This document shows positions 4,082-38,415 of a stretch of DNA of 64,000 nucleotides, one piece after another (within the stretch, counting starts at the first letter, position 1; each line of letters starts with the position of its first letter). The position numbers and the translations under genes are program-made. This DNA is from Antedon mediterranea (lineage: Eukaryota > Animalia > Echinodermata). The notes below the pieces were generated by a model. It made no database searches. It saw only the letters and a list, made by a program, of their open reading frames with translations, and was not told the origin of the DNA. Location of the stretch: positions 3,834,201 to 3,898,200 of the forward strand of contig NC_092670.1 of the NCBI RefSeq assembly GCF_964355755.1. The letters run 5' to 3'.

Positions 4082-7000
4082 TTAACACATGGGTTTCATT
4101 TTCTTACTTTCATCTTCATAGTCTAAACGCCACGTCTTTTGACTTTCATTCTGTGCTATAACAGATAAAAAAAAAGATTAATTGATGAAAATAGTTTAGC
4201 CAGAGGACCAAACCTACACAAGATAGTATTGAAAATAAGACGTTTACAATTAATGTACAGTAATACTGAATTATTTATAAATGAAATACTAAAGCTGTAA
4301 AACGAGCAACAACCTTTTAGAACATCCATAGGGCCTTTAAGTCCCAAGAGCTTCATTTTAGCAATGAATGGTTTCATATCTTTCTCACAGATTATGTCTC
4401 TTGCCTCAAGGTCCATAATCAAATTCCATGTATCCTTATAATCCTGGTCTACGTCATTAAAATGTGTATTTATTTTCGTCATATCTTCGTTGGTCAGCTT
4501 TTCTCCAAACTCTATCAACATCTTTCTGTGAGGCGTGAATTTTGAAATGGTAATATCCCTAACATTTGGGAATTCTCCAATTTCATTACGAATTTCTGTT
4601 TCTAATCCAAATTGCTTCGTTAAGTTTATGGTTTCATAAAGCAAAGTTAAATCATGTCTTGTTAGATGTTCTTTCTCCATTAAGAACTTTAGCAGGTGAG
4701 TTGTGCTAGATGCCTTATCTAACTCACCAGTTGTTAGTAGATCTGTATACAACAGTTTCAGTTTATTGAGTAAATTACGACCATCATACCACTTCGAAAA
4801 TGTTACCTCTATGATTTCAAAGTCACGTTGCGAAATTTCTATGAAAATAAAATGAAAATAGAAACAAGACAATCAGTTACAGAAAAAAAGTGGAAATAGT
4901 ATTTATAATCACATGGGAATAGACCACCCAACAATAAAGATGATGAGTAAAATAATAATGTTCATCATGGTTAATAATATTGGCAACTTTATAGAGCAAA
5001 CGAACAATGTACACTTGCAACAATCAAATAATTCGTTAAAATCCAATTCCCGTTATGGTCATGAATAAATTTAACTAGTGTAAATGGTACATACAATTAA
5101 TTTTTTTGGGGTTATATTGCTTCAGTCAAATGTGTTGTAAAAACATACTGAAAATATATTATGCCTTTGTATTAATATTACAATATAATGTCATTATTGT
5201 ATTTCAAGCTTTTTATTTGGGGGGGGGGGGGGGGGGTGCGTAGATGGTAATGACTGCCTCAAAAAGTGCAGAACACACAATGAATAATTGACACATTATC
5301 CTACAAATATTTTCACCTTCATTGAAAAAAAATTAACGTTTTGCGACAGCACAATTTATTTTAATACGGTCAAGATTAATACAAAATAATAGTGTGTATT
5401 TTTCAAAGCAAATGTAGAATCAACAATTGATGATATTGAATTAGATGAATAATATTTAGTTACCATTTCTAGTTGGCTTAGTTTCGAGGGTTTCGCTGTT
5501 TTTGTGCGTTTCGTTGTTTTCTTGAGTTTCGCTGTTTTCGTGGGTTTTGTTGTTTTCTTGAGTTTCGCTGTTTTCGTGGGTTTCGTTGGTTCTACGAGTT
5601 TGACCTGGTTCGGCGGTAGTCAATTCATGATAATCTTGACAATAAAGAAAATAAGTTGAATGCTCACATTAAATGTTTGCAAGATGTTAACTTACATACT
5701 TAGTCCTTTTCTTTTATATAGATTTTTAAAAAAAAGTCAAATAATGTCAATGCAATAAACTTATAAACTTGTTGAGTGGCTAACTAATTTTAGAATTGTT
5801 TCTGTTTCATATTTAGACTAGATTAAGTCTTATGCGATCAAACTTGCATTTGAATTTACTATTATAGTCATTCATATTTTCAGCATGATCAAAGCAATGC
5901 TGTTAGATTGCTTTAGTATGATGAGGTTGCATTGTTAATAATACTCTGTAGTTTGACATGAAATACGCAATTGAGAGGCCTAAATGTATAAACAAATAAT
6001 CAATTTCAAGAATAGTTAAGCAATGTCCCACAAAATAGTAATGTCCATGTCCACATTGTGTTTCTAATTTTAGTAAGAACTGTCTTTACCGTCATTATGA
6101 TTTCGTCGGCGTGATGTTACGCACCGGTACGATAACACACCAATGATGAAGAATAACAATGGTTCTACGCAACACAATATTATAGCTACAAGAAAACTCC
6201 GTTGATCAGCACAAAGTGTAGCAGAAGTAGGCCCAGGACCTGCAACAATTTTAGTGACAACAAAAATGATTTAAATCATCATATATTGAAAATTGTTTCA
6301 GAATTGTTTCACAATTAATCTTATTAAAAAGAAAAAAATTTTATTTACAAAAAAAGATGTGTATGAAAGCACATATTTGTTTAAATACTAACCTGGGTTA
6401 CATTGTCGATCTTTTGTGCGATTACATTTATCCTCTTCCTATATAATATAAATAGAAATAAAATGAAGGTTCTCACATGACTTCGCTATTTGCACTTGCA
6501 TGTCCGGACTCTTATTGTAAACGGGCATTCATCCAAAAGTATGTTTGATTTTCTATCTAGTGGGTATTTGGTACGGGCCATAAATGGATACCGTGCGATT
6601 TAGATTAATTAGCGGACATAATTATGTCTATACAACACTTATTTTGAAAATTACAATGTCTAACAAGATATTGGGAGGCTCTCTGTGACTGAAAGCTGCA
6701 AAATATCAGTTATCATAGGCACTTTTGAATGTTTGTTCAAACACACTAATGTGTAAATTCTTGAAAGCAATTTGCAGTGTTATGTTTCATTATGTTTAAT
6801 GGAATGAAATACGGGGTTATGTTTTTTTTTAACTATAGTTCCATTTTTGTATACCTACAAGTTCATTATCAGCACACGTACGACAAACAAGACAGTATGG
6901 ACACGCGTTTTGGTAAGGACTGTATGTTTTTTCGGGACATCGTTCACAGACAGACTTGGAATCTTTGAAATTAGCTAGATAATATCCTGGAAGGCATAAA

Positions 7001-7113
7001 TCATATTTGACTCCGTTGGGCGTCAATTTAAACTTCGTGTGGTCTGGAGAGCTTCCATATTCTTCTTGGTAGCATATACAAGTTGATTTGAAGTCTTGAA
7101 TGTTCTCGGAAAA
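4082..7113 (-). CDS. TNF-receptor-superfamily type-I receptor with cytoplasmic tandem DEDs (signal-peptide exon not identified)
   Basis: Phase-consistent GT-AG exons: 7113-6859 (CRD: CLPGYYL..CERCPEKTYS..NAC..CLVCRTC), 6438-6393 (EEDKCNRTKDRQCNP), 6239-6090 (TM: FLVAIILCCVEPLLFFIIGVLSY then RRR), 5634-5464 (repeat linker), 4838-4314 (two DED-like folds), 4155-4082 (AQNESQKTWRLDYEDESKKMKPMC*). Open frame throughout. Confidence 0.85.
4314..4838 (-). CDS. Tandem DED-DED exon of receptor 1 (525 nt, phase 1-1)
   Basis: LKLLYTDLLTTGELDKASSTTHLLKFLMEKEHLTRHDLTLLYETI and ISKFTPHRKMLIEFGEKLTNEDM...LIMDLEARDII align by eye to the two DEDs of caspase-8/cFLIP-type prodomains; the RxDL motif is degenerate. 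Confidence 0.8.
5480..5590 (-). repeat. Coding 18-bp tandem repeat in the receptor 1 linker exon (NETHEN/SETQEN)
   Basis: Repeated gtttcgctgttttcgtgg / gttttgttgttttcttga units, in frame. Confidence 0.85.
6859..7113 (-). CDS. TNFR cysteine-rich-domain exon
   Basis: CxPGY...CxxCPxxTYS...CxxCxxC pattern typical of TNFR CRDs; 255 nt, phase 0-0, canonical splice sites. Confidence 0.9.
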
Positions 7114-7194
7114 CTAAAAAATAAAAGGTTATCATTCAATAAAAACAAGTAGGCATTTTATTAGGGAGATGTGAGTGTGTTTTCTTTTTTATTT

Positions 7195-7242
7195 TTAAAT
7201 GCGCCTTGAGCACTCTGGAGTGGTATGTGCGCTATAAAAATC

Positions 7243-7283
<41 letters not shown>
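7195..7283 (+). mobile_element. L2/CR1-type LINE (or derived SINE) 3' tail with (TTA)n
   Basis: gcgccttgag...gcgctataaaaat stem followed by an (ATT)n microsatellite tail. Confidence 0.6.
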
Positions 7284-8864
7284 GTATGGTGAAAATATTT
7301 ATCCTGTTTTTTATGTAACTAACCATAAATACTTCAGTATGTCCAAACCATGTCCCAGGCTGCCCGTAAGTTACCAATGAACACATGATGACTGCACACG
7401 ATACACATAATGTGTATTTAAACAATATCATCTTCTACTGCAGGTAATCTGTTGTTCAATTCAATTTCTTTTTATTTCGGAAAAATCATCCATATTAATA
7501 AACGTATAAACAGAAAAAAAAAATAAAAAATCGTAAACTCTAAACTTAAGTATATAGAATGCTTCTCCATCTACAATACATTTTGGAGTTATGGAGCATA
7601 TTTTTGAAAACACAAACAACAAGGATGTTACCACTATTCAACATACGTTGCATAAAACCATAGGTAGATTTTCGCATGTACTCATTAAAGGAAGGGACAC
7701 CATGTTCAATAAACATTGCACTGGCACTACTACTTCTAGAGACAGTTGTGAGGAAACATATCCAAGTTAGAAAGAAGCATGTTCTACAGTTCTAGTACTA
7801 GTTACAGCACAGGTACAGATATTAAAAACATGTAGAATATTAAAGGCAGATCAATACAATGGTAAAATGCTGGAAACTAGATATTGTGTCTTGAAAAGTT
7901 GATAGCTGCCAATGCTATAACTGAGTGTAATGTTAAAATCAAAATGGTGGAGACTAAAGGAATGGTAAAAAATGGCACCTAAAGTTTAATACATTCTGTA
8001 ACTAAACAATAACAAACAAAATAAGCTAAAAAAAAATAATCTTAATATTATCTTAATATTATATTGGAGCTAAAACCAACTGACAAACAAAACCACTACT
8101 ATTGGTTTGAAATACTAATTTGTCATAAACAAGTTGCTGCCACGAATATTAATATTTTTACTGTAAGTCAAAAAGATTGCTCATGTGTGGTACTAGTCTA
8201 CCTATATTATGTTGTATTGTTGTATTAAATCTTACCAGAATATCAAATAGTTATTACGTATTCCACGAAGTACCGGTACACGCAACGTAGAACCTATATC
8301 TTAGATTTAAAACAACTCGGTCATCTAACTATTACACAAGCCTACTTTTTTTCTCCAACCGTTTGTAACCGATAGGTTCATGTAGCATAGAGACAGATTA
8401 GGGGTACAACAGTCGTTGTATTGAACAAACAAGAAACGCTATAAAACAAACACAATGATGTTCTATTGTTGAGAAATGTCAAATAGAAGCATACCATTAT
8501 CAGGATATATTGTTTTAGTATAGCGCCCCTATACTAAAAATCGGGGTTGTCTGCAAACAGTAGCGTTTTAAAACGTTGTTAAAAGAAGGAAGAAGGAAGG
8601 AAGAAAGAAAAAAGAAAGAAGAAATGTAGAAACGACTGAAAAACAAAACCTATTCAGCCGTCGAAGCTATATAGCAGCAAGTTTGTAAAACATTGCAACT
8701 AGCGTTGGAAGCGAAAAGAAGTTAGTAAACAAAACATGGGAGGAGAACTAAGTTGTGAAACTATTTGAGACTTAAGCAGACTAGTGAGATAATTATGTAA
8801 GTGGGCTTTTATTATGGATGATGATACACCAAAATGTTCTTTACATATTCATAGTATAGATTTG

Positions 8865-11085
8865 ATTTTAAGAACATACTAAAGTATCATTTGTCTCATA
8901 AATAAAATATTAAAGAAAGTAAGTTTGAAAAAGCATTTGAATTACTGATTAAATTGACAAATATAATTCTACCTACTTTCATTGTTAATTTTATTCACAG
9001 CGATACACGTCACATTAATATCAGGCTGCTCACGGCAAACCAGTCACAGCAATATAAACTTTTAAAAGCAATGTCTAGACAAATAAATCAGTTCTGTTCC
9101 AGCCCGGCGGAATCATCCCCCTGTTAAAAGTCCTACCAGTGTTATGCGGCTTACAAAATACAACAAGTAGCAGTCTCTAAAGCATACAGGTGAATACTTA
9201 AATTAAAACATTACCTCCCTACTTTTAGTCGCTATTGAACTGTATAATGTATACTTTTATCCCATATAGTTTTAGACGTAATAAAGCGTTTTGTTATTGG
9301 ACAGTTTAAGAAAAGCAACATTTGATTACAAAATGTCACTAAAAGTGTTTGAAAAATGTATTTGATTTGCTGATGGATCTCAGTATAAACAATTAAAATA
9401 ATAAACATTCTTGAAAATTACTGGTAAAGCGATGCACATGAAGGTAACAGACGTGTTATTAGTAGTAATTAAAGAGCTATTCAAGCTAATAATATAATAT
9501 ATACTTTTAATAATACAAATTGTGTTTCATATCAATACTATAGAATTCCTGTTCCAAGCCATAATTTCCAATACAGGTCAGCGGCCCAAGGTATAAATGC
9601 AACATTAATTCATATATCTATTTCTGTTGTTGTACAGACACAAAATTATACACATTTTCAATAGAATAATATTTCCGAAAGTCACACTTCTAAAACGCTT
9701 TCCTGACAATAACCAATTAAATTAATTATAAAGGGTGTTGTCATGTTTAAGCATAATTGATGGTGACGTGCTTGAATGGGTTTATCGGTTGATTTGGGGC
9801 AGTGTGCCGTGCACCTTCTTCATTAGAGCTGCTTCTGTCTGTTCATGTGCTGATGTGTAACCATTGTAAATTACTTTGCGCTTACATAAATTTGATTTCC
9901 TTAAACTACTGTACCATAGGCTTACTAAAGAACAAAAACAAAAATGCACTTTCGACAACTGAGTGATAAAATAAATTCATAATAATAGTGTCCACGTAAA
10001 AAACGGTTCAATCTTTATAAATGGAGTCGAGTTTGCCTTTTCGAAATTAGTAATTTACACTGCTTTCGCCGAAACATAACTAACCCCTGCACTGTGTCTT
10101 TCTATTAACACATGGGTTTTCATGTTCTCATTTTCATTGCAATTATAAATACGTTCATCTTCATAGTCGAAACACCACGTCTTTTGAGATTGATTGTGTG
10201 CTATAACAGATAAAAAAAGGGATTAATTGATTGAATATAGAGGACAGAACCCACAATATGGTATCGAAATTAATATTTTTACGATTAATAATCAGTAATA
10301 TTGAATTATTTAAAAATATAATAGCAAAGTTACCTTTTAGAACATCCACAGGGCCTGTAAGACCTAAGAGCTCCATTTTAACAATGAATGGTTTCATATT
10401 TCCTTCACGGATTTCTTTTCTTTTCTCAAGGTCCATTATCAAATGCCATGTATCCTTATAATCCTGGTCTGCGTCATTAAAATTTGTATACATTTCCTGC
10501 ATATCTTCCTCGGTCAGACTATCACCAAACTCTATCAACATCAGTCTGTGTAAAGTAAACTTTGAAATGGCAATATCGCTAACATTTGGGAATGCTCCGA
10601 TTTTATGTTTAATTTTAAATGCCAATCCAAGTTGTTCCGTTACTTTTATGGTTTCAAAAAGCAAAGTTAAATCATGTATTGATAGATGTCCTCTGTTCAT
10701 CAAGAAATTTAGTAGCTGAGTTGTGTTATTTGCTTTATCTAACTTACCAGTTGGCAGGAGGTCTGTATACAACAGTTTCAGCTTATTGAGGAAATGACGT
10801 TCATCATACCACTGTGAAAAGGTTACTTTGATACATTCAAAGTTAAGCTGATAAATTTCTATGAAAATTAAATAAAGATAGAAACACTACAAACAAGGAA
10901 AAAAAAGCAGAAATACTATTTATACTCACACTATTACTATTATGGAAATACACCACCCAACAATAAGAATATGATTACAATAATAAGTTCATCATATTTG
11001 ACTAGTTCTATTGGTAACTTTAGGCCTATAGAACAAATAATTTTATTATTCAATCAAATCCAATTGCCAACAAAAAATTATGGTC
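8865..11085. repeat. Segmental duplication copy 2; partner ~2490-5070
   Basis: Colinear with copy 1, including the DED exon and the downstream flank. Confidence 0.9.
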
Positions 11086-12496
11086 ATCGCGTGGACGCGA
11101 CGCTATAGTTCACTATGTCGGTCGGTCGGTCATCGCGTGGACGCGACTCTATAGTTCACTATGTCGGTCGGTCGGTCTGTCTGTCGGTCCGGTATCACTA
11201 TGCGTTTTATCGCTTTCTGACCTTATCTTGATATCAGTTTAATCTAGCTAAGTCAATTTTTCACAGTATATTCCTTATGGCCAGGAATCGATGTGGTTAT
11301 GTTTTCACGGTGCGCAATAAAAAATTACGTGGTCTACGCACGATTTAACGAAATCACGTTTGTAATCATATCTTCACAACCATGAATCACAATTAAATAA
11401 AATTTGGTACTCATAAATTTCAGGGCATAAATCATCATATGGCAATACAATTACGTGCGTAGCGCATGTAACGCATGCGTACGCATGCTTAAAATTTTCA
11501 AAAATTTATTTTCGATGAAATAAGAGTACGTTTCAGGCAATTTTAAGCGTTTACAAAATTGCCATGAGTGCGCAGATTTTTGCGCGCGCACTGCGCGTTA
11601 AAGTTGTTACGCACTCTTTTTGCCCGATTTCTGTTTTCTTGACTTACTTTTCAACTAGAAATTACGTTATTCGAGCACGTCAAAAGTGTGACAGGCTACG
11701 CACGTGTAAATTAAAAAAATATAACTGTTTTTAAACATTTCAACATTTTTAAACATGTTCAGTAATTTCGGTCAGTTGGTAGGTTGGTCGGTCGGTTGGT
11801 AAACACTAATGAGCACGCGCGACTGCAGCCATCTATATGGCCTTGTTTTAAATATTTCTGCAGTAAAATATGTTGTAAAACATAGGTCGATTACAAAGAG
11901 TTTATTCGTTTAGTCAAATTAGAATTACATGAGTAATATTTAGTTCTTCTTACCATTATTTGTTGGCTTATTGGTAGTTTTGTTCTCTTGGGTGTTCACC
12001 GAGTTGGTTGTAGTTTCATCAACAATACCGACCGGCATACTGCCAGGAACAATTGTTGGACTTTCTGGTGATCTGGAATCCTCAACAGTCATGTTTTCTA
12101 CTAGTTGTTGTGAGTTGCTTGTACTGCTGTTACCAGACTTCTTTTTGAAATAGTAACATCTAAAAGAAATACATTTTTTTGTGAAAGTCGAGCCTGTGAG
12201 ACTCAATGATTAACTAGTCTGACGATAAAGCAACACAAAAGTACTGACTGCGCTTGGCTATAAAATCTGATACAAATAGACCTTCGTCATTTTCACAACT
12301 GAAGTTGCTTTAAACATTGAATATAAAAGTATTCATTACGATAAAACATACGTAATAAATGCGATCGTAACTACCACCAGAAGAATGATGCATAGAATAA
12401 TTGAAAGAAAGGGCCAATTGAATGATGTATCATCATTTGCGCCAACATCATCATTGTCAATAACGTCACCAATACCATCTTTGACGTCGTCTTTAC
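10055..12496 (-). CDS. Receptor 2: TM - Ser/Thr-rich linker - tandem DED (ectodomain probably the HYR exons at 24690-25994 and 41272-41422)
   Basis: Exons 12496-12352 (stalk + TM NWPFLSIILCIILLVVVTIAFIT, phase 1-2), 12159-11954 (CYYFKKKSG...NKPTNN, phase 2-1), 10858-10334 (525-nt DED-DED, paralog of 4314-4838), 10200-10055 (terminal). Open frame with canonical splice sites. Confidence 0.85.
11084..11848 (+). mobile_element. Non-autonomous Helentron/DINE-1-like (HINE) element
   Basis: cgcgtggacgcgac subterminal inverted repeat, (GTCG/GTCT)n microsatellite, and 3' gcacgcgcgactgcagcc...ggccttgtt end. Near-identical inverted copy at 27329-28044. Confidence 0.75.
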
Positions 12497-13868
12497 CTAG
12501 GTAAACGAAGAGCAATAACAATATAATTTAATCAGCGAAAACGAAAACGTGAAGAAGAAGAAGAAACATCACCGAGCATCCCCAAGGAAATTTAACAATT
12601 TTGGTTGAATCATAGAAAAAATAGGAGAAGGATATGCTAATACATAGTGTAAGAGAAACACTGTTTTATCTGCACATTCTTTACAGGACTAATTAGGCTA
12701 GTCAATCTAGCAAAAAAAACAGCCCAAAGTGAAACAAATTGCAAACAGAGATTTTTCTTTTTTAAATGGTCATATATGATGAGGAGATCAAAATTTGAGC
12801 ATCACACCTCTGTCACTCATCCCGATGATATGCAAATTAGCTTAAATATGCAAATTAGGGTGAAATTACAAGGTTACCATATCTCAAAAACTACTAGTCC
12901 GAGAGAGTTGATTTTTTCACTGATCTATTCAAAATGTATATATTTATATTTACTCTAATGAAACATTTTACGAAAAAATGACCGGAAGTACAACATTTGA
13001 CCTTCGACCCCATTTCTCAATGTTTGCATATACAATGTGACTAAAATGTCTGTGGAGACTTTATTTTGCCCTCAAATGACCCAGACATAGGTTCCTAATA
13101 GCCAGTATAGGATCACTTTGTAATTCCCAAAATCACACCTTTGTCACACACCTCAAAAGTATGCAAATTAGTAGTACAATTTAAATAAAATATGCAAATA
13201 AGGGGAAAAATTACAGTTGTCCTATATCTCGAAAACCACTAATGCTAGAGAGCTGATTTTTTCACAGCCGTATTTAAAATGTACATATTTCTATTTGCTC
13301 CAATGAAACATTTTACAAAAAATTGACCGGAAGTATGATATTTGACCCTCGACCCCATTTCTCAATATTGCATATATAAATGAAACTAAAATGTCTGTAG
13401 AGACTTTGTTTTGCCCTCAAATGACTCCGATACAGGTTTCTAATAGCCAACATAGGACTGTTTAGTAGATCTCAAAATCCCACCTGTATCACTCACCTCC
13501 AAAGTATGCAAATTATTAGTACAAGTTACATGAAATATGCAAATTAGAGGGTGAAATTTAAGGTTCCTATATATCGAAAACCACTAAGGCTAGAGAGTTG
13601 ATTTTTTCAATAACTTGTTCAGAATGTACATATTTATATTTACTCTAATGAAACATTTTACGAAAAAATGACCGGAAATACAACAATTGACCCTCGACCC
13701 CATTTATTAATGTTTGCATACATAATGCGACTAAAATGTCTGTAGAGACTTTGTTTTGGACTCAAATAACTCGGATACATGTTTCCTATAGTCAGCATAG
13801 GACCGCTTTGTAATTCCCAAAATCACGCCTTCGTTTTGGCATGGTTGGAATTCCCTTTTTTCGTATTA

Positions 13869-16770: not shown

Positions 16771-16842
16771 TTAGTTTATGTACAGCGCTTAGAGGTTACA
16801 CAACATTAGGCGCTATATAAATCCAGGATATTATTATTATTA
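16771..16842 (+). mobile_element. L2/CR1-type LINE 3' tail (upstream part probably 13831-13868, split by the inner Academ)
   Basis: gtacagcgcttagag...gcgctatataaat followed by (tta)n. Confidence 0.6.
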
Positions 16843-16974
16843 TTTCTCAATATTTGCATATAATGCAACTAAAATGTATGTACAGACTTTGTTTTGGCCT
16901 CAAATGACTCGGATACAGGTTTTATATAGCCAGTATAAGTCAAGCACCTCGAAAGTATGCAAATTAGTAGTACA

Positions 16975-17691
16975 TGTAACCTTAACGTCACGTGCGGTTC
17001 TGGGAGTCAAAACGAATTAAACGCGTTCACAAAGGTATAGATATAAATAATGTTTATTCAACACGGCAATGAAACGAACGATTTGACAAATTGGTAAAAC
17101 GATTGGTTGAATGGTCGAACAATTGGTTGAGCACACAATGGATAGATGTTGAACGAACACACAGCAGTGGAACGAACGATAGATCGAACGGTTTAAACTG
17201 TAAATTAATGGATAATTAAAGCCGTCATTGTAATTAAATAATCAATTGGTATAACAATTGGAACATCTAAGCTAAATAGCTCAACAATCATATTAAACTA
17301 GATTTATAGAAAATGATCGATTCATCATTACTGTATTACCATTACTTCAATTTAACAGTAGGCCTAGGCCTAGGCCTAGGCCTACTAGATTATACTATAT
17401 AGTATAATTGAGTCAGTAATTATCTAGTAGGCTACAGTTAAATGATACAAAAGATTATATTATCTAAATATAAAGCATCATAAACTTACATCTGTTTCTT
17501 CACCAGAACCTATAGATTACAGTACATATTTTTAACTATCAGTGTATTTATCTAGGCTATGAACTATCCCAAAGAACAACTCTGAGACAATCTGCCCGTT
17601 ACTATGGCAATCTGACCTTACTAGGAGAAAAGTCACCTCTTGCTCACCAAACATGAAATAGAGGGCGACATTATACAATTCAAAGTTAACA
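16975..17691 (-). repeat. 3' LTR of BEL element 1
   Basis: Direct repeat of 21853-22566. Confidence 0.95.
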
Positions 17692-17855
17692 TTCCGGCCC
17701 CTTAAAGGCACCGTATGGATAGCCTTTACATAAAAATAAACATGTCAACAAAAACCTAACATTGTTAAAATTTATAAGGAAAAGATAAATTCCAAAATTG
17801 GATCTTATAAAACGCAGAAGAACAATCTGTAATGTTCAAAAGTTCATATTTCCAA

Positions 17856-20800
17856 TTAGTTGGTCGCATTCTCAAGAAGGACCAGTTTGTCAATTGGTCT
17901 CACAAGCGTTGATGTGTTTGTCTTTACTTTCACTGACCGTACAAGTCCATCCTTTTGGTTGCTGTACACTTCAAGAACTCTTCCCAATGGCCATGAACTT
18001 TGTGGTGTGTTTTCGTCAAGAACAAGCACAACATCGTCTACAGCAAAGTTTCTCTTTTGCACATTCCATTTTTGTCTTTGTTGCAGTGACGGTAAATACT
18101 CCCGTACCCATCGTCGCCAGAACACATTTGATAAGTACTGTACTTGTTTCCATCGTCGACGATACATATCCTCCTTTGAAAAGTTACCAGGAGGTAAGCT
18201 GTTCCCTCCTCGCAACAGCAGTAAATGATTCGGAGTTAAAGGTGTCATGTCACGAGGGTCATCCGATATCTTAGTAATCGGCCGACCATTAACAATAGCC
18301 TCTGCTTCACACATTAAAGTGTTTAGGCCTTCATCATCAAGCACTTGTTGTTTCAGCACAGCCATCATGACTTTCCTCACTGTCCGAATACAGCGCTCCC
18401 ATACTCCTCCATGATGAGATCCCATTGGTGGATTGAATAACCATTTCACATTTCGTTGCAACAAGAATTCATGGAATTGTCCTTGATTCCACTCTTTAAT
18501 TGCTTTATTCAGTTCCTTCTCTCCCTTTTTGAAGTTTCCTCCATTATCTGATCGAATCTCTTCTGGCTGTCCTCTTCGTGCTATGAATCTTCTCATAGCA
18601 TTCATGAATGACTCCGTGTCAAGTGAGTTTGAAACTTCGATGTGGATTGCTCGTACAGTGAGACACGTGAAAAGGACACCATATCTCTTCACATTTGACC
18701 TCCCCCTTTTTACTTCGAACGGGCCGAAGCAGTCAACACCAACGTACGTGAACGGTGGCTTCGAAGGTGTTACTCGGTATTGCGGAAGTGAAGCCATTTT
18801 TTGTTTCCCAACTGATGATTGGCGTCTCTTACAGCTGAAACACTCGTTCAGAACTTTCTTCACTGCAGTACGTGCATCAATCGGCCAGAACTTCTGTCGA
18901 ACTAGGGACAGTGTGTATTCTAGTCCACTGTGTCCTGATAAATGGTGATAGTATGTAGTAATGAGCTTCACTATGTGGTGATTCTTTGGTAGGATTATCT
19001 GATGTTTCATGTCACCGTTGATAGGTGAATTTTGAAGACGGCCCCCTACTCTGATCACTCCCTCACTTAAGATGGGATCGAGTTTGTAGATCTTGCTGGA
19101 TTTTGGTAGTGCTCGTTGCTTTTTGGTATTGCAGGGTTGAGATAGGCTTACACGCTTCAGGCAAACTTGCTCGTCTTCAAAGCATTTCTGTACATGCTTC
19201 GTGATAGCAATTTCAGCACCTTTCATCTCCAAAACATTGATTGGATCAACTGTGTCATTTCTATTAAACGAAACATCGTCTCCAGCCTTACGCCTGCGAA
19301 CCACTTCTCGTAACTTTTCTTTGTACCTCAAAATCCATGCAAACGACTTCTTCAACTTCTCCCATGATGAGTAGTAGTTAATGACTGATGAAATCGAGTC
19401 AATTACATTTATACCAGTAGCACAGACTGTGGATTTTGCCTTTACCTCTGGGTCATCTTGTGGGATTTCACCCATGTTTGCTGGTCTTTGTGGCCATGTC
19501 CTCTCAGGTTGCTTTAGGAATTCTGGACCTTCCTTCCAACGTTGATTGATCAATAATTCATTTACTGTCATACCTCTTGATGCTTCATCTGCAGGGTTGT
19601 ACAGGCTGTCATTGAATTCTAGATTACAGTAGTCCTTGAACTGTGTTGACAACTCTTCATGTGAATCAATGTAGTTAGCGCAGTGTGTTGATCCAGAGTT
19701 CTTCCTTCCCAATGGGCCGTTGACAACCCAGCCAAATAGTGTTCTAGTGGCAAATGGACCACCATCGTGGCATTCGCGTACTTCCAGCGGTTGTAGCAAT
19801 TCTGGCACATCACTTCCAATGAGAATACCAATATCTGCATTTATTTTATCTACTTTAATCCCAGCTAGGTGAGGCCATTTGTTGATGTCATCTGGAGTAG
19901 CGATCGTATCGGTAGAAATTGGTAGGGTTTGCACTGAATAGACGTTTGGAAGTAAGACGGAATGTCCATGATTTAAATCCAAAATCTCCAACTTTGTAAG
20001 TTCACACTGGATTGGTCTATTTACTCCGTTCATGGTTGTCAATGATAAGTCTACAGTATTCGATGATATCCCTAATTGCTTTAGTATACCAGTGGTGCAG
20101 AAAGTTGTGTTGGATCCATTATCAAGAAATGCATAGGCTTCTACAAGCTTGGCACTTCCTGGAGCCTTGACTCTCACAGGTACGGCAGCAAGACCAGTAA
20201 CGGTTGATGTGCTTCTTGATGCCGACATGTTGACCTGTTCACCACTGAAAGTTGCTGGAGACGTCTGAACTGGTTGTACAGCAACAGTACCAGCATTACT
20301 TGTAGTCTCACCTTTGGGATGTAAATATGTTGAGTGTTTCTTCGTGCATCCGGATATTTTGCAGAAACTTTGCTTTTGACAATCTTTCACAAAATGTCCA
20401 ACTGTAAGACAGTTGATACAGATTTTCTTGTCATTTACACATTTCCATCGGTCGTTGAGTGACTTCCGTCGGAACTGCTCACATCTGGAGAGCCAATGGT
20501 CCTCACAGCATAGCGGACACGTTGGTTGTGATGTTACAGGTGTGTTTGACTGAGAATTGTGAACGGCATAACTGCTAGATTTGTGGTTGGTCGATAATTT
20601 ATCCAAATTTGGAGAATTGGTAGACTTCACTGGCTCTATTTTACCAAAAACTGGATGAGTTGCTACCCTAGCCTTATCGGTGACAAACTTGGTAATATCC
20701 TTAATATTCACATCTCTCTTTTCCTTTACGATGATAGTGTCAACCACTTCCCGCCATCTTAGCCTTAGTCGATACGGAAGACGTTCAATGATTTTCCGAA

Positions 20801-21809
20801 GATTGTCTGGATTATCTAGCTTGCTAAGGTATCCAATTTCCTGAAGTGTATTTGCACAGCTTGTTAGTTGAGTAGAGAAGCGTTGTAGAGCTATGCCATC
20901 CTCGACTTTGATAATCGGCCAATCCAGCAAGAGTTGAACGTGGGCAGCAGCTATCTTGTATGCTTGTCCATATCTTTCCTTTAGCAAGCGTCTCGCCTCA
21001 ACATATCCTTTATCATCACTCATCGATAGACAGCTTCTCATCAACTCTTGTACAGCCCCAGTCGTGTACTGTACCAAGTAGTGCAGTCTTGCACTCTGGC
21101 TCACAGTTTTGTTCTCAACAAGATGTTTGAATGAAGTGACAAACTCGCAGTATTCAGCAGGATTGCCACTGTATAACTTCATTGACGGGTTAGGCAAGGT
21201 AAGCGCAGTAACACTTTGTTGCTGTTGTTGGACGATCTGTCTCAATGCTTCATTTTGCTTATCTTGTGCTCTCATCATTGTGGATGCCAGTCTATCTATG
21301 GCATCGATCTGCTTGTGTTGGTGGAATACAGGAGCATCCAGATTAAATGGTTGGAACACTGCTGGTTGAGGTGTACGCTGCCACAGCATAGGATTCCCTA
21401 ACAGTTCTGTCTCCTCCTTTGGAACATATTCTGATCGATAATCAGGAGCAAATCGTTGGTCGGGCAGATTTCCTGATGGAAGTTTGGGAGTGGTTGTTTC
21501 AATTTGAAGCTTTGGTAGAGAAAGATCTTCGAGTTCACGATCTACTGCCTCATCCTCGTCCTGTTCAGCTTCGTTGTAAACTTTGTCGGCTGCTTCAATT
21601 GCCCCGATTTCAATTTGCAATTCCACATCAGCCTTCTTTTGTTTGAGCACCAATTCCTGCATTTCCAAGTCATGCATTTCTTTCTGTCTGGCAGCTCGTT
21701 CCCTTAATGCTGCAGCTTCAGCCTTAACCCGGATCCTAGATCTGCTGCTCGATGATGAGCGTTTGGAGCTTACGCAACTCACTGAATCACTTGGTTCAAC
21801 GTCAAACAT
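17856..21809 (-). CDS. BEL/Pao Gag-protease-integrase polyprotein (1317 aa) with in-frame RT/RNaseH deletion
   Basis: Gag, three Cys-His knuckles, protease AFLDNGS, then ...EFNDSLY|NPADEASRG..., integrase HHCC (HHLSGH, CFSC) and DDE core (GVDCFGP, SDNGGNF, GGVWER). No YxDD and no DAS motif. Confidence 0.92.
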   Translation of the reverse strand: MFDVEPSDSVSCVSSKRSSSSSRSRIRVKAEAAALRERAARQKEMHDLEMQELVLKQKKADVELQIEIGAIEAADKVYNEAEQDEDEAVDRELEDLSLPKLQIETTTPKLPSGNLPDQRFAPDYRSEYVPKEETELLGNPMLWQRTPQPAVFQPFNLDAPVFHQHKQIDAIDRLASTMMRAQDKQNEALRQIVQQQQQSVTALTLPNPSMKLYSGNPAEYCEFVTSFKHLVENKTVSQSARLHYLVQYTTGAVQELMRSCLSMSDDKGYVEARRLLKERYGQAYKIAAAHVQLLLDWPIIKVEDGIALQRFSTQLTSCANTLQEIGYLSKLDNPDNLRKIIERLPYRLRLRWREVVDTIIVKEKRDVNIKDITKFVTDKARVATHPVFGKIEPVKSTNSPNLDKLSTNHKSSSYAVHNSQSNTPVTSQPTCPLCCEDHWLSRCEQFRRKSLNDRWKCVNDKKICINCLTVGHFVKDCQKQSFCKISGCTKKHSTYLHPKGETTSNAGTVAVQPVQTSPATFSGEQVNMSASRSTSTVTGLAAVPVRVKAPGSAKLVEAYAFLDNGSNTTFCTTGILKQLGISSNTVDLSLTTMNGVNRPIQCELTKLEILDLNHGHSVLLPNVYSVQTLPISTDTIATPDDINKWPHLAGIKVDKINADIGILIGSDVPELLQPLEVRECHDGGPFATRTLFGWVVNGPLGRKNSGSTHCANYIDSHEELSTQFKDYCNLEFNDSLYNPADEASRGMTVNELLINQRWKEGPEFLKQPERTWPQRPANMGEIPQDDPEVKAKSTVCATGINVIDSISSVINYYSSWEKLKKSFAWILRYKEKLREVVRRRKAGDDVSFNRNDTVDPINVLEMKGAEIAITKHVQKCFEDEQVCLKRVSLSQPCNTKKQRALPKSSKIYKLDPILSEGVIRVGGRLQNSPINGDMKHQIILPKNHHIVKLITTYYHHLSGHSGLEYTLSLVRQKFWPIDARTAVKKVLNECFSCKRRQSSVGKQKMASLPQYRVTPSKPPFTYVGVDCFGPFEVKRGRSNVKRYGVLFTCLTVRAIHIEVSNSLDTESFMNAMRRFIARRGQPEEIRSDNGGNFKKGEKELNKAIKEWNQGQFHEFLLQRNVKWLFNPPMGSHHGGVWERCIRTVRKVMMAVLKQQVLDDEGLNTLMCEAEAIVNGRPITKISDDPRDMTPLTPNHLLLLRGGNSLPPGNFSKEDMYRRRWKQVQYLSNVFWRRWVREYLPSLQQRQKWNVQKRNFAVDDVVLVLDENTPQSSWPLGRVLEVYSNQKDGLVRSVKVKTNTSTLVRPIDKLVLLENATN

Positions 21810-21852
21810 CTTAGAGATAGATTATTGCAGTAGAAGAGAGATTTTAAACTTA

Positions 21853-22566
21853 TGTAACCTTGACGTCACGTGCGGTTCTGGGAGTCAAAACGAATTAAAC
21901 GCGTTCACAAAGGTATAGATATAAATAATGTTTATTCAACACGGCAATGAAACGAACGATTTGACAAATTGGTAAAACGATTGGTTGAATGGTCGAACAA
22001 TTGGTTGAGCACACAATGGATAGATGTTGAACGAACACACAGCAGTGGAACGAACGATAGATCGAACGGTTTAAACTGTAAATTAATGGATAATTAAAGC
22101 CGTCATTGTAATTAAATAATCAATTGGTATAACAATTGGAACATCTAAGCTAAATAGCTCAACAATCATATTAAACTAGATTTATAGAAAATGATCGATT
22201 CATCATTACTGTATTACCATTACTTCAATTTAACAGTAGGCCTAGGCCTAGGCCTAGGCCTAGATTATACTATATAGTATAATTGAGTCAGTAATTATCT
22301 AGTAGGCTACAGTTAAATGATACAAAAGATTATATTATCTAAATATAAAGCATCATAAACTTACATCTGTTTCTTCACCAGAACCTATAGATTACAGTAC
22401 ATATTTTTAACTATCAGTGTATTTATCTAGGCTATGAACTATCCCAAAGAACAACTCTGAGACAATCTGCCCGTTACTATGGCAATCTGACCTTACTAGG
22501 AGAAAAGTCACCTCTTGCTCACCAAACATGAAATAGAGGGCGACATTATACAATTCAAAGTTAACA
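21853..22566 (-). repeat. 5' LTR of BEL element 1
   Basis: Direct repeat of 16975-17691. Confidence 0.95.
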
Positions 22567-24689
22567 GTACAAGCTATATGAAATATGCAAGTTACAGTGA
22601 ATTGCCTTATGTATCTCGAAAACGCTAATGACCGAGAGAGAGAGATATGGCAACTTTCTTGTACTACTGATTTGCATACTTTCAAGCGAAGTAACAGAGG
22701 TGTGATTTTGAGAATTACTAAACAGTTCTATGCTGGCTATAGAAAACCTGTATCTGGGTCATTATTGAAAAAAAAAATTATCGAAAGTATGACATTTGAC
22801 CCTCGAACCTATTTCTCAATATTTGCATATAATGCAACTAAAATGTATGTACATACTTTGTTTTGGCCTCAAATGACTTGGATACAGGTTTTATATAGCC
22901 AGTATAGGATCGTTTAGTAATTCCAAAAGTCAAGCAACTCGAAAGTATGCAACTTATTAGTACAAGTTATATGAAATATGCAAATTACAGCCTTATGTAT
23001 CTCGAAAAACGCTAATGACCGATAGAGATATGGCAACTTTCACCTCTTGTACTATTAATTTGCATATTTTCTAGGGAAGTATTAACAAAGGTGTGATTTT
23101 GAGAATTACTACAGTTCTATGCTGGCTATAGAAAACCTGTATCTGAGTCATTTGAGGCCAAAACAGTCTGTACAGATATTTTAGTTGAATTATATGAAAA
23201 TATTGAGAAATAGGGTCAAGGGTCAAATGTCATAATTCAATCAAGACAATTTTTGCATAAAATGTTTCATTACAGCGAATATAAATATGTACATTCTGAA
23301 TCAACTCTGAATTCAAATCAACTCTCTAGCATTAATGGTTTTCGAGATATTGGAAGACTGTAATTTCACCCTAATTTGCATATTTCATGTAACTTGTACT
23401 AATAATTTGCATACTTTCAAGGTATGTGACAAAGATGTGATTTTGGGAATTACAAAGAGGTCCTATGCTGACAATAGGAAAACTGTATCTGAGTCATTTG
23501 AGTCAAAAAAAATTATCTACAGACATTTTAGTCGCATTATGTATGCAAACATTGATAAATAGGGTCAAGGGTCAATTGTTGTATTTCCGGTCATTTTTTC
23601 GTAAAATGTTTCATTAGAGCAAATATAAATATGTACATTCTTAACAAGTTTTTGAAAAAATCAACTCTCTACCTTAGCGGTTTTCGATACATATAGGAAC
23701 CTGTAATTTCACCCCCTAATTTGCATATTTCATGTAACTTGTACTAATAATTTGCATACTTTGAAGGTGAGTGATACAGGTGTGATTTTGAGATTTACTA
23801 AACATTCCTATGTTGGCTATTAGAAACCTGTATCCGAGTCATTTGAGGGCAAAACAAAGTCTCTACAGACATTTTAGTTTTCATTATATATGCAATATTG
23901 AGAAATGGGGTCGAGGGTCAAATGTCATAGTTCCGGAAATTTTTTTGTAAAATGTCTCATTACAGCAAATATAAATATATACATTTTAAATATTTTAGTG
24001 AAAAAATCAACACTCTAGCATTAGCGGTTTTCGAGATATGTCAACGCTGTAATTTCACTCCCTAATTTGCATATTTAATATTACTTGTACTACTAATCTG
24101 CATACTTTTGAGGTGCGTGACGAAGTTGTGATTTTAGGAATTATAATAAAGTTCTATGGTGGGTATTGAAAAACTATATCCAAGTCATTGAGTCCAAAAT
24201 AAAGTCTCTACAGACATTTTAATCACATATTTATGTAAATATTGAGAAATAGGGTCAAGGGTCAAAATTTGGTACTTTCGGACATTTTTATGTAAAATGT
24301 CTCATTAGAGCAAATATAAATATATATATTCTGAACCAGACTGTGCAAAAATGAACTCTTTACGATTAGTAGTTTTTAAGATATGGTAACCCTGTAATTT
24401 CACCCTAATTTGCATATTTAAGCTAATTTGCATACCTTTGGGATGAGTGTCAGAGGTGTGATGCTCAAAAAATAATCACCTTATCATATGTAACCATTTA
24501 AAAAAAAAATCTCTGTTTGCAATTTGTTTCACTCAAAATGCTAGATTGACTAGCCTAAATAAGAACTTTAGTATTTAAAATCGCATCAATCAAAAGTGTT
24601 GGAAACCACAATTTCAAAGACAACGATGAGGTGATTGTTCTGTTTTAAATGATAATAATTGTAAACACGAGTTTAAAAAAGAGTTTTAC

Positions 24690-24933
24690 CGCTGACGATA
24701 ACTTTAAATGTGCAGTTTCCTATGTTATTTGCATGGTCAGTAGGGCCTACTGTAGCAATAGACAGTGGTTTGTCCAGGATTAAACAAAGAACCAGATGAA
24801 CGCGTACAAGAAGCCGTCAGATCAATGTCAATGTTGTCAACGACACTTGGGTCATTCCAGGTTGCCATAGCTGGTTCTGATGATGACACATGAAAATCAT
24901 CTGGACAACTAAGTATAGGACTTGACGAATCTT
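24690..24933 (-). pseudogene. HYR (hyalin repeat) domain exon, frameshifted near its 3' end
   Basis: EDSSSPILSCPDDFHV...ATWNDPSVVDNID...CTRSSGSLFNPGQTTVYC / TDHANNIGNCTFKVIVS. Canonical splice sites, 244 nt. Frame broken at tacagtaggcccta (~24741-24754). Confidence 0.85.
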
Positions 24934-25221
24934 CTGTAAAGTGAAACAGAATTTACTGAAGAAGCATAAACAGTGATAGTAAAACATACCGATTGCGTTT
25001 TTATTATGAATGCGTTTAGGTTTAAAACATACAATATTCAAATGAAACATATTATGGCCTAGAATACACTTTCATTATTTCTTACCTACTTTCAACTCGA
25101 AGGAGGTAAATGCTGTCTTCTCCTCAACATAGTCTCCTTTGAAATTTAATGTTAGGCCTACTCGCGGAAGTTTACTTATATTCTGTTTGTATTTCAAGCA
25201 AAAATCATATATAAAGCTTAC

Positions 25222-25484
25222 CAACAACAAAGATGAAAGAAAGATTGCATCATTGCCAGCGTCATCAGAGACAATACATTCAATTGTGTACGAGCCACGT
25301 GATAATGTTACCGGTGATGTTGTTATTGTGACTTCTGGGGTATATCTTCGACAAACTGGTAACAATGTACTATCAACGTTGTCAGTAGCTGTTGGGTACA
25401 TCCATGACACTTGAGTGACAGAACTGATTGGTGACACGCCTACATAGAGGTCATCGCTACAGTCTATAGTCGGTGGCGTATTAT
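25222..25484 (-). pseudogene. HYR domain exon with 1-nt deletion near the 3' end
   Basis: DNTPPTIDCSDD...VSWMYPTATDNVD...GSYTIECIVSDDAGNDAI; 263 nt. The paralogous fragment at 46571-46616 shows the intact ICSFKISV ending. Confidence 0.85.
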
Positions 25485-25760
25485 CTTGAAGTCAAAACAA
25501 GAAATAAACAATAATCATGGCGTCAATTACTATAATAGGGTGTGGGTTCAGGATGTATAAATAATTAATTGTGAACGATCAAATTGCTAATCAACTTCTT
25601 ATATTAATTTGAACTTAACGCCATTTTTAAAAGGGGTTCACAAGTACACTTCAGCAAAATACATTAAGTCAACACGTCCAGAGGCACCGTTAGATCCATT
25701 TGCTATTAAACACAAGTACCAATAAATTAAATTAAAATGAATTATTTGATATTCACTCAC

Positions 25761-25994
25761 CAATTACATCTATAACAAATGTACAGCTACCAGAATTGCC
25801 AGCAACATCAATAGCGCGATAAGTAACATGATTCGAACCTATAGCAAAAGATGACCCAGACGATGGAGTACATATTGCGACCAGATTACTGTTCAGGTTA
25901 TCGGCAACTTGTGGTGGGTTCCAGTTAACCAAAGAGGAGCGTGTTCCAGCCGTGATGTCATTCGGACATCTCACGCTAGGATTCTCTCTATCGA
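25761..25994 (-). CDS. HYR domain exon (intact, 234 nt, phase 1-1)
   Basis: DRENPSVRCPNDI...VNWNPPQVADN...CTPSSGSSFAIGSNHVTYRAIDVAGNSGSCTFVIDV is a classic HYR consensus. Confidence 0.9.
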
Positions 25995-26145
25995 CTTAAT
26001 TTGAAAATAAATTACAAATCTTAGTGGTGAGGCAAGTATTTTGTGATCCTTCAATATATCTTATTGTTACCAGTTACTTCAAAGTGTTCTTTATATTAAC
26101 AACACTGCTCTATGATTACCTATAGTAATCACACTATACTTTGTA

Positions 26146-26240
26146 TCATGAGGTAATTTCCCGATTGATCGTAATCAAAACGGTACTGGGTATGGTCTAC
26201 TAGCGTTCCTGATCCCAACTCGTCATCCATTCATAGAATT
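26146..26240. repeat. Copy of a ~285-bp unclassified repeat (continues at 30404-30670 after a TIR insertion)
   Basis: gaggtaatttcccgattgatcgtaatcaaaacggtactgggtatggtctac also occurs at ~30597, 31734 and 32015. Confidence 0.8.
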
Positions 26241-27328
26241 GCATTAGGAGAACGAGCCCTATTTAGCGTGAGCTTTTGCCTCTGGCATCTTACTTGTTTA
26301 TTTTTGCCTAAAGCCAGTCATTAATGTCTTAGGCAATTAATAAATCACGTAACACCTTGTTCATCTTCCAGGCTCAGCCTTCCTTGCTTCTGATTGGCTG
26401 CAATGCACAGCCTATTTTGGAATTGGTCACTCATTGTATTTAGAAACCACCATTATACCATGGGTAAATTTTTTGCACACAAAATTAAAGAATGCAAGTG
26501 GCCTTGTGGTTAGCAAGGTCAGTTCTAATCTAACAGCAGGGAGCCAAAGAATGAACTGTAGAGATGAGTTTAAATTAAAAATTTGTGTTTTGTGCACCCA
26601 GACTAAAATCGCTGGAAAAGCAAAAACTTTTGTTTTGAAATTAAAACTATATTTATAAACTATTTCATGTTCTTCAGCTGAGATCTCAAAATTATCTCTA
26701 TGGATTTGCCACCCCTCTAATGTTAAATATATAGGCCTATAATAGGCCTATTATATTTAACATTAGAGGGAGTATAATAAATAGTACAGTAATACTATTT
26801 CAAATTATAAGCAAACAATTAAATACTGTATTTTATAATCATATTTTATATAATAGTTACTTTATGTCTCAATTATAAACCCCTTTTCTTGAGTATACCC
26901 CAATTGTATGCACATTTATGGAGGAAATATATATTTATGTTTTTCTCAATACATAATAGTTCAGTTTTTTTTTCAAATTAATGTGACATTTGTTTGTCTA
27001 AGTTGTGTGAAGTAATGATACCAAAAATGTTAACTCTTAATTTGTAACTCCTGAATTGTAATCAATAGATTAGGTCTAAGTAAATATTAAAAAATGGTTG
27101 TTAATGTTACAGATGGAACATTTTTGTTATAGGCCAGGATATCATTATTTTAACGATTAACTAAAAAATCAGATACTGTAATTAATACACTGAATAAAAT
27201 CTGTATGTGCATGTTATATATTTATTTTAATTTGAAAATTAACAATTGCCATGTAAACATATATTATGGGCCTAATTTGAATTAAATTTTATAGAGTATA
27301 TATTCTTAAAAAATTCCTGTCCGTTAAA

Positions 27329-28044: not shown

Positions 28045-28198
28045 ATGTGAACCTGCATAATGCGATAAAGTATTGTTGGCACATAATATTAAATCCCGTC
28101 ACAGTATTATCTTGTATCCTTTAACATTTGGAATGAGTTGGTGCATGGTAAGATATAGGAATATGGATTATGAAGGGGATGAAAAAACGTGAAAAAGA

Positions 28199-30403: not shown

Positions 30404-30670
30404 AAGCCTTGATGAAGAAAGCCTACCTGGTGGTAACCATAGAACGGCCCCGAGATAACGACTATACTTCGGCTTTAGTCGATAGAAGATTGAAAAAATT
30501 GTTAGAGATAGAGTATACAATGCTTGATTATGTGTATATGTGTGATTTGCTTTTTAATCAAATGAAGTTATCGTAGATTGTATCGTGAGGTGGTGCGGTA
30601 ATTTCCCGATTGATCGTAATCAAAACGGTACTGGGTATGGTCTACTAGTTTTTCTGCTCCCAACCAGTAC
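30404..30670. repeat. ~285-bp repeat unit copy
   Basis: Near-identical to 31822-32090. Confidence 0.85.
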
Positions 30671-38408: not shown

Positions 38409-38415
38409 ATGATTC

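Follow-up and report, generated by a model that had tools for sequence, protein, structure and literature searches.

A tandem death effector domain (tDED) exon was found in two paralogous copies on the minus strand of the window, i.e., the whole 64,000-nucleotide stretch of Antedon mediterranea DNA that was analyzed, and copy 1 belongs to a predicted gene, receptor 1, with the ectodomain of a TNF receptor. The exon structure of copy 1 can be traced in the DNA, its frame is open, its tail takes the tDED fold in the structural model, its front end is akin to that of a death-domain TNFR, and its tDED is under constraint. The explanation considered best, which we hold at slightly below an even chance, is that copy 1 is a young chimeric receptor predicted to bind DED-bearing partners directly, bypassing the death domain and FADD.

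Fold and constraint of the tandem-DED exons

The two tDED exons (4838–4314 and 10858–10334) were each 525 nt long, bounded by AG and GT, in phase 1-1, and open, with 81% nucleotide and 68% amino acid identity between them. The pair of paralogous DED-DED exons described in the first-pass annotation was thus recovered at the same positions. Pfam DED scored both with E values of 4.6e-7 and 2.5e-8 (30.4 and 34.5 bits, just under the gathering threshold of 35.9). The AlphaFold model (pLDDT 96.8) showed two packed DED helical bundles, the second with five helices, and matched the caspase-8 tDED with Z 18.5 and an rmsd of 2.2 Å over 164 residues (range, 2.1–2.4 Å and 163–164 residues), so the exons encode tandem DEDs, as had been proposed. 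The model also matched cFLIP and vFLIP (Z 13–16), while the best non-DED row and the best death-domain row reached only Z 6.2. No hit reached significance in a sequence-profile search of the PDB, where the best DED row had E 0.13. The ESM Atlas gave DED clusters at 0.92–0.94, with recognition slightly under its threshold, which is a lead only.

Between the two tDED exons, no indel was found in 522 nt, compared with 18 gaps across 519 aligned nucleotides of flanking sequence. The dN/dS ratio was 0.60, with an interval (0.37–1.02) that reaches 1, and the probability that neutral change would leave no stop was 0.02 when all 99 differences were counted and 0.13 when half were assigned to one lineage. 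On this comparison of the copies, the tDED exon is under constraint. The constraint could be older than the fusion.

The RxDL charge triad and the DED2 Phe-Leu patch are tandem-DED motifs known from mammalian work. Both were absent from the two copies and from most of the family, including the crinoid caspase-8-like proteins, as mapped by eye and not by residue-level structural alignment. The DED2 hydrophobic patch was polar in both copies, and Leu is kept at that column in 51% of the family. The receptor tDED shares the rigid two-DED fold with the prodomains of caspase-8/10, cFLIP, and vFLIP (Z 13–18.5), but differs from them in its low identity (~16%), its five-helix DED2, its lack of these motifs, and its predicted tethering to the membrane, the prodomains being cytosolic.

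Predicted gene model of receptor 1

The predicted model of receptor 1 comprised seven exons and 442 aa without a stop, encoding a signal peptide, TNFR cysteine-rich domains (CRDs), a TM segment, a linker, and the tDED. All exons lie on the minus strand. Exon 1 (7324..7431) carries the ATG and signal peptide, ends with a phase 0 donor, is homologous to the N-terminus of P0154, a death-domain TNFR of A. mediterranea, and was the sole candidate in a signal-exon scan of 7200–9000. It is followed by a cysteine-rich exon (6859..7113, 255 nt, phase 0-0; Pfam TNFR_c6 E 0.0026–0.006, sub-gathering) and a 46-nt exon (6393..6438, phase 0-1), which completes the CRD and aligns with P0154 over both junctions. 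The spliced CRD retains the cysteines of P0154 and has the six-cysteine pattern of the TNFR superfamily, and the continuation of receptor 1 into TNFR CRDs was confirmed and extended to a signal-peptide exon. Downstream are the TM exon (6090..6239, 150 nt, phase 1-1; hydropathy peak 2.77), a polar and repetitive linker exon (5464..5634, 171 nt, phase 1-1) with a 3' end similar to that of the copy 2 linker, the tDED exon (4314..4838), and a terminal coding exon (4082..4155). The last encodes a 24-aa tail, which is shorter than that of copy 2 because of a 22-nt frameshifting gap.

All six introns were GT-AG with compatible phases throughout, although the CRD-to-TM and TM-to-linker junctions were predicted from splice signals and phase only. 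One run presumed to be RNA covered nothing but repeats and showed no exon joints, which weighs neither for nor against the junctions. Hydropathy, in place of a dedicated predictor, gave just two hydrophobic segments, one N-terminal and one near residue 150, which fits a single-pass type I protein. Glu-Pro occurs inside the predicted TM helix. In the tail, Pfam scored DED and not Death.

Origin of the chimera

Over residues 8–145, a stretch that spans two junctions, receptor 1 shared 63% identity with P0154 (E 6e-59), and its CRD exon was 76% identical to A. mediterranea XP_071943975, being 24% diverged yet open. P0154 carries TNFR_c6 (E 6.4e-5) and a hydrophobic segment, and its C-terminus matches Death (E 1.3e-4; 22.4 bits, with a cutoff of 22.6); it also matched the structures of TNFRSF14 and TNFRSF11B. 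Given this 63% identity of the front end to that of a conventional death-domain TNFR, a death receptor appears, from sequence, to have exchanged its tail, yielding receptor 1. The TM of receptor 1 was not homologous to that of P0154, and neither its TM exon nor the 5' part of its linker had a homologue in P0154 or among 149 tDED relatives.

Between the two copies, linker-exon homology was confined to the 3' end (49 nt, 78%, E 1e-5), and the TM exons differed from each other in phase (1-1 in the 150-nt exon of copy 1, 1-2 in the 145-nt exon of copy 2) as well as in sequence. The first-pass annotation had read both features correctly; however, the G that it wrote at the linker ends stands for the base that opens a Glu codon and not for Gly. 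As the shared block starts within the linker exon, the join between the genes resembles a breakpoint of duplication, and not a shuffle with clean intron borders. The duplicated block would have extended from the linker 3' end through the tDED, the tail, and the 3' flank. One tDED copy would have been placed behind the duplicated 5' half of a TNFR gene, and the other behind the front of an EGF/HYR-type single-pass receptor that has probably decayed for the most part since.

Copy 2 and its neighborhood

Copy 2, also on the minus strand, consisted of a TM exon (12352..12496, 145 nt, phase 1-2; hydropathy 3.33), a linker exon (11954..12159, 206 nt, phase 2-1), the open tDED exon (10334..10858, phase 1-1), and a terminal coding exon with a 48-aa tail (10055..10200). 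Its TM exon weakly resembled that of an EGF/CUB gene near 54.3 kb, with a DNA score of 71 compared with a mean of 49, an SD of 7, and a maximum of 70.5 in 300 shuffles. Beyond it lies a transposon block (12690..24561) containing long inverted repeats and an LTR element (LTRs at 16974–17691 and 21852–22566), which we take to be of Pao/BEL type from its DUF1759/rve/DUF5641 layout.

These 12 kb of transposons separate the TM exon from three minus-strand HYR exons, two of which were frameshifted in the raw DNA. HYR exon 1 (25761..25994, 234 nt, phase 1-1) was open, with a Pfam HYR E value of 8.5e-18; HYR exon 2 (25222..25484, 263 nt) had a frameshift close to its 3' end, and HYR exon 3 (24690..24933, 244 nt) was frameshifted with an internal stop. 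Assembly error was rejected as the cause, as same-sample contigs showed no difference from the window across the HYR2 and HYR3 breaks in four of four runs. A scan that recovers receptor 1's own signal-peptide exon gave no candidate for copy 2 in 12500–24690 or 26000–42000. A signal exon at 60245 is unlikely to serve copy 2; 48 kb and several features separate them, since genes on the same strand lie between and the gene to which this signal exon belongs includes a TM exon of its own. HYR1 by itself could splice in phase to the copy 2 TM exon.

In copy 2, no intact signal peptide was thus found together with a HYR ectodomain that continues in frame into the TM; receptor 2 is doubtful as an intact HYR receptor, and the reading of two working receptors is not supported. 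An orthologue was not seen either, the HYR1 search returning just two distant ENA proteins. The exon-shuffling proposal was supported in that receptor 1 combines a death-receptor ectodomain with a mobile tDED exon, but its swappable sensors were not, given the decayed front of receptor 2, and the join looks like a breakpoint. Elsewhere in the window, a HYR remnant at 41.3 kb contained a stop, a multi-TM gene at 49.3–51.6 kb was broken across three frames, and an EGF exon at 56.1 kb was frameshifted.

The crinoid tDED module family

The receptor tDED was a clear member of a family of 149 representative relatives, with identities of up to 68%. In crinoids, this module was fused to NLRs, Roco proteins, RIG-I, Rel, and TIR, and it was present in caspase-8-like (P0033), cFLIP-like (P0102), and FADD-like (P0139, tDED + Death) proteins; an Anneissia caspase-8-like protein carried two tDEDs and a catalytic domain. 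The tDED is a symmetric, mobile exon and serves crinoids as a plug-in module. No description of the family was found in the literature searched. Because crinoids attach the module to many proteins, caspase-8 is one candidate partner among several, and not the obvious target it had been taken for. Moreover, the receptors' tDED sat in a group of eight rows, none of them a caspase or FADD protein (support 0.979; SH-aLRT 98 from a quick tree using 38 of 177 units) and was only 23–39% identical to the crinoid caspase and FADD copies.

Some of these proteins are membrane-anchored. A strong hydrophobic segment C-terminal to the tDED occurred in 8 of the 149 relatives, e.g., tDED-TM-fibrinogen C and tDED-TM-FN3-like proteins, so membrane tethering of the module recurs. 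These membrane forms place the tDED N-terminal to the TM, and the type I ectodomain-TM-tDED layout was found in none of the 149. Three had a hydrophobic stretch N-terminal to the tDED, but two were Roc/COR proteins and the third had neither a signal peptide nor a CRD match. As none of the 149 matched CRD, HYR, EGF, or CUB, the predicted receptor 1 layout was seen only in this genome. Among A. mediterranea tDED proteins, the two nearest to the receptors (P0001 and P0006) were annotated as soluble, without a TM and with low-complexity flanks. A word-indexed tDED search returned one protein among 258 candidates but overlooked a relative at 62%, and its negative outcomes therefore carry little weight.

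Comparison with known receptors

Receptor 1 resembles the death receptors Fas, DR4/5, and TNFR1 in its predicted single-pass type I layout and death-fold tail, and its signal peptide and CRDs are 63–76% identical to the crinoid death-domain receptor XP_071943975. It differs in that a tandem DED replaces the death domain, and its TM and linker are unrelated to those of XP_071943975. Oysters have a lineage-specific expansion of Cys-rich–TM–DED–TRADD-N receptors (Kaur et al. 2021, PMC8195603, section 10, Fig. 4 source data), including C. gigas XP_019918422 (TM+DED+DED+TRADD-N), in which two DEDs follow the TM. As in receptor 1, a Cys-rich ectodomain, a TM, and an intracellular DED occur on one chain. 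However, the oyster receptors also contain TRADD-N, with effector domains that vary, and their ectodomain is not termed a TNFR CRD in PMC8195603; in the crinoid copies, only 24 or 48 residues lie between the tDED and the stop, and TRADD-N is lacking. In amphioxus, cDNA-validated TNFR–caspase "direct connection" genes (Zhang et al. 2008, PMC2575513) likewise join a TNFR ectodomain to a downstream death component and bypass adaptors, but their fusion partner is the catalytic domain rather than a tDED.

The adaptor-bypassing idea has precedent in oysters and amphioxus, whereas the first-pass annotation knew of no description. No TNFR–TM–tDED protein was found described in the literature searched; the available part of PMC11463336 contained no relevant architecture, nor did the PMC4979521 supplement, with no match for DED, death effector, or caspase.

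Proposed mechanism and alternative explanations

Under the best explanation, a TNF-family ligand would cluster the CRDs, and the tDEDs would be brought together via a flexible linker of roughly 65 residues. The tDED cluster could then seed DED-DED assembly of cytosolic tDED proteins, nucleated DED filaments being an established mechanism (PMC8403095). The likeliest effector would be a caspase-8-like protein, in competition with many other crinoid tDED proteins. The frameshift of the copy 1 tail relative to copy 2 counts against this explanation.

It is also conceivable, though unlikely, that both copies are duplication debris, chance chimeras decaying in an unstable immune-gene cluster, with receptor 1 just still unbroken. 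The broken genes nearby (HYR2/HYR3, the 41.3 kb remnant, the 56.1 kb EGF exon, and the 49.3–51.6 kb multi-TM gene), the high dN/dS with an upper bound of 1.02, and the absence of an orthologous layout in the 149 relatives are consistent with decay. However, neither tDED exon has acquired an indel or stop despite 19% nucleotide divergence, the CRD exon has stayed open at 24% divergence from P0154, and all seven receptor 1 exons have kept compatible splice sites. Distinctly unlikely is an expressed but inhibitory receptor 1. As a FLIP-like cap or decoy tethered to the membrane, it would co-cluster with the conventional death receptor via near-identical CRDs and end or divert DED chains. Receptor 1 has a tDED and lacks a catalytic domain, as do vFLIP and short cFLIP, both matched by the model, and the closeness of the ectodomain to that of the death-domain receptor makes a shared ligand or mixed clusters plausible. 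CARD capping inhibitors with defective interfaces are known (PMC8403095), and the polar DED2 patch, at a column where half the family retains Leu, would suit such a role; however, since the crinoid caspase-8-like tDEDs lack the patch too, its absence is no mark of a cap.

The TNFR and tDED exons could instead belong to separate transcripts, one for a TNFR that is soluble or has a short tail and one for a cytosolic tDED protein, as suggested by the soluble P0001 and P0006 and by the lack of homologues for the TM exon and linker 5' part. We consider this very unlikely because the TM exon has a GT donor, an open frame, and the right phase about 450 nt before the linker acceptor, and the copy 1 linker exon contains no Met from which another protein could start.

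Significance

If receptor 1 is expressed and active as a chimeric receptor, it would be a natural test of whether ligand-gated caspase-8 activation can do without the death-domain/FADD layer of the DISC. The conventional sister receptor, 63–76% identical in its ectodomain, would be the matched control, and receptor rewiring would be seen at a young stage. A wider reading, which is speculative and somewhat improbable, is that crinoid innate-immune and death signaling was rebuilt on one mobile tDED exon, which on NLRs, RIG-I, Rel, TIR proteins, FADD, and caspase-8 takes the roles that CARD, DD, or PYD have in vertebrates, and that this exon is still entering surface receptors. Receptor 1 would then be a death receptor and adaptor in one chain, seeding caspase-8 filaments at the membrane without a death domain, and a type I member beside the type II tDED–TM–fibrinogen and tDED–TM–FN3 sensors. 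The spread of one tDED module over many crinoid sensor and effector types may outweigh this locus in importance, and two annotated genomes already allow the expansion to be studied.

Tandem DED exons and their crinoid relatives

The window was AT-rich animal DNA with introns. Its closest proteins belonged to two crinoids, Antedon mediterranea and Anneissia japonica, which makes a feather star the likely source. Both tandem death effector domain (tDED) exons proposed in the first-pass annotation, at 4314–4838 (copy 1) and 10334–10858 (copy 2), were confirmed. Each was 525 nt long, bounded by AG/GT, in phase 1-1 and open, with 81% identity between the two at the DNA level and 68% at the protein level. 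Pfam DED matched them slightly under the gathering score (E 4.6e-7 and 2.5e-8). When the structure of the 175-aa exon product was predicted as that annotation had proposed, the AlphaFold model, built on a 49-row alignment, folded as a tDED with a pLDDT of 96.8. Its best Foldseek rows were caspase-8/cFLIP tDED structures, and structural alignment gave a Z of 18.5 and an rmsd of 2.2 Å over 164 residues, versus a Z of 6.2 for the best non-DED row. The exon encodes a tandem DED.

An exhaustive search returned 149 representative relatives, and all 29 whose species was looked up were from A. mediterranea or A. japonica. Pfam scans covered all 149 relatives. Among the best five families per protein, the partners were NACHT (at least 23), Roc/COR (at least 19), TIR (at least 3), caspase and Death (at least 2 each), and RIG-I helicase, Rel, kinase, ubiquitin, ubiquitin hydrolase, ENTH, HEPN and fibrinogen C (at least 1 each). 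The Anneissia caspase-8-like protein (P0033) carried two tDEDs and kept the catalytic His and Cys motifs, and a FADD-like crinoid protein (P0139) combined tDED with Death. The tandem DED was N-terminal in P0139 and in the crinoid proteins P0053 (RIG-I-like helicase) and P0035 (Rel). The window tDEDs were mutually closest in the family comparison and in a 38-unit quick tree. They belonged to an eight-row group together with soluble, LRR, ubiquitin and Roco fusions, with a support of 0.979 on all 177 tDED units of at least 140 aa (14 shorter units left out) and an SH-aLRT of 98 in the quick tree. Their identity to caspase, FLIP and FADD tDEDs was 23–39%.

A strong hydrophobic segment was found in 8 of the 149 relatives, always past the first tDED, as in tDED–TM–fibrinogen C and tDED–TM–FN3-like proteins. 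The A. mediterranea models with the tDED ahead of the TM (P0055/P0151, P0114, P0123 and P0122), whose partners were fibrinogen-C, FN3-like, ZU5 and NACHT, are candidate type II membrane sensors. None of the 149 relatives matched the CRD, HYR, EGF or CUB queries.

Receptor 1

Receptor 1 was modelled on the minus strand from seven exons (7431–7324, 7113–6859, 6438–6393, 6239–6090, 5634–5464, 4838–4314 and 4155–4082) with GT-AG ends, matching phases and an open 442-aa frame. The predicted order was a signal peptide, TNFR cysteine-rich domains (CRDs), a single TM, a polar linker, the tDED and a 24-aa tail. A possible non-coding first exon, ending in a GTAAGA donor, was seen at about 8236–8400.

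The continuation of receptor 1 into TNFR CRDs held, as the open frame passed through the CRD exons. The CRD exon search gave a sole match among two candidates, A. mediterranea XP_071943975 (P0154; 76%). In that protein TNFR_c6 and a TM-like segment are accompanied by a Death match at the C-terminus, and its CRDs match TNFRSF14 and TNFRSF11B structures. Over residues 8–145 the model was 63% identical to P0154 (E 6e-59), in an alignment that crossed two exon junctions, and no alignment was obtained past residue 145. Thus, on the aligned sequences, a conventional death receptor supplied the front end but not the tail.

Copy 2 and the probable duplication

Copy 2, also on the minus strand, was open through its TM exon (phase 1-2; 12496–12352), its linker, its tDED and its 48-aa tail. 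The closest upstream ectodomain exons were indeed three HYR exons (24690–25994), past an almost entirely transposon block (12690–24561) whose removal leaves about 300 nt between HYR3 and the TM exon. HYR1 was open (Pfam E 8.5e-18). HYR2 (263 nt) and HYR3 (244 nt) were frameshifted, both frameshifts being spanned by a contig with 0 differences in 4/4 DNA runs of one sample, and scans of 12500–24690 and 26000–42000 found no signal exon. The TM exon weakly resembled that of a signal–EGF–CUB–EGF gene in the window (score 71; shuffles 49 ± 7, maximum 70.5 of 300). Accordingly, an EGF/HYR receptor family is the likely source of the copy 2 front end, most of which is by now defunct unless HYR1 is joined directly to the TM exon. 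The feature is real, comprising a single plausible chimeric receptor and a second, decayed copy rather than a demonstrated modular system of two receptors as first proposed.

The DNA common to both copies comprised the last ~40 nt of the linker exon, the tDED, the tail and the 3' flank. Since homology breaks within the linker exon, the pair points to a segmental duplication more than to a clean exon shuffle.

Interpretation of receptor 1

In mammals, FADD bridges the death domain of the receptor and caspase-8, and the tDED of caspase-8 then polymerises (PMC8403095). Predicted receptor 1 would, upon clustering, present its tDED directly, a reading that we hold tentatively, at slightly under even odds. 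That both copies are decaying debris is appreciably less probable. The HYR frameshifts are of that kind. The tDED exons themselves had 0 indels in 522 nt, against 18 gaps over the 519 nt of flank that could be aligned. Their dN/dS was 0.60 (bootstrap interval 0.37–1.02), and the probability of no stop under neutral change was 0.02–0.13. This pattern shows weak coding constraint for much of the post-duplication time, which could be older than the fusion. The copy 1 tail had a 22-nt frameshifting gap relative to copy 2.

Somewhat less probable still is a tethered FLIP-like cap. The RxDL and DED2 Phe-Leu motifs were absent from the window tDEDs and from the crinoid caspase too; thus their absence does not separate seeding from capping. 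That the TNFR and tDED exons belong to separate transcripts is improbable. The CRD-to-TM and TM-to-linker joins are predicted from splice signals and phase, and the frame stays open across them. Direct presentation of the tDED has relatives among known systems. Kaur et al. 2021 (PMC8195603) describe some 50 proteins of Crassostrea virginica that combine a Cys-rich ectodomain and a TM with DED and TRADD-N and, in a table, list a TM+DED+DED+TRADD-N protein of C. gigas. Zhang et al. 2008 (PMC2575513) report amphioxus TNFR–caspase fusions validated by cDNA, and the covered passages of a TNFR review (PMC4979521) give DD as the apoptotic tail and mention no DED form. A literature search of incomplete coverage, by which absence is not established, turned up neither a TNFR–TM–tDED protein nor any description of the crinoid tDED expansion. 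Receptor 1 belongs to an already known kind, the invertebrate shortcut receptors, as a variant new to it.

Other elements in the window

The signal–EGF–CUB–EGF-repeat–TM gene (60245–53570, minus), whose N-terminal layout we take to be fibropellin-like, was decayed: its EGF exon 56220–56106 was frameshifted and an AATA repeat disrupted the 5' end of its TM exon. No tDED followed it in the window. HYR remnants lay at 41282–41419 and 46553–46617, one interrupted by an internal stop and the other 89% like the HYR2 end, and the sample's DNA contained another HYR1-like copy (~93% identical) at a different place. Also present were three multi-TM genes of ~700 aa (minus; 67–77% DNA identity), paralogous to one another and apparently without introns. 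That at 42276–44381 was open, with no Pfam or usable Atlas match; 49353–51573 was split over three frames, and 3–1865 ran off the window. An LTR retrotransposon at 16974–22566, nested in inverted repeats, had 718-nt LTRs 99.4% identical and an open 1321-aa ORF, and thus inserted recently. Two inverted copies of a high-copy repeat (11133–11796 and 27381–28038) were 94% identical, one sitting inside the copy 2 linker-to-tDED intron. A tandem array of ~42-nt units (28192–29072) carried long open frames on both strands.
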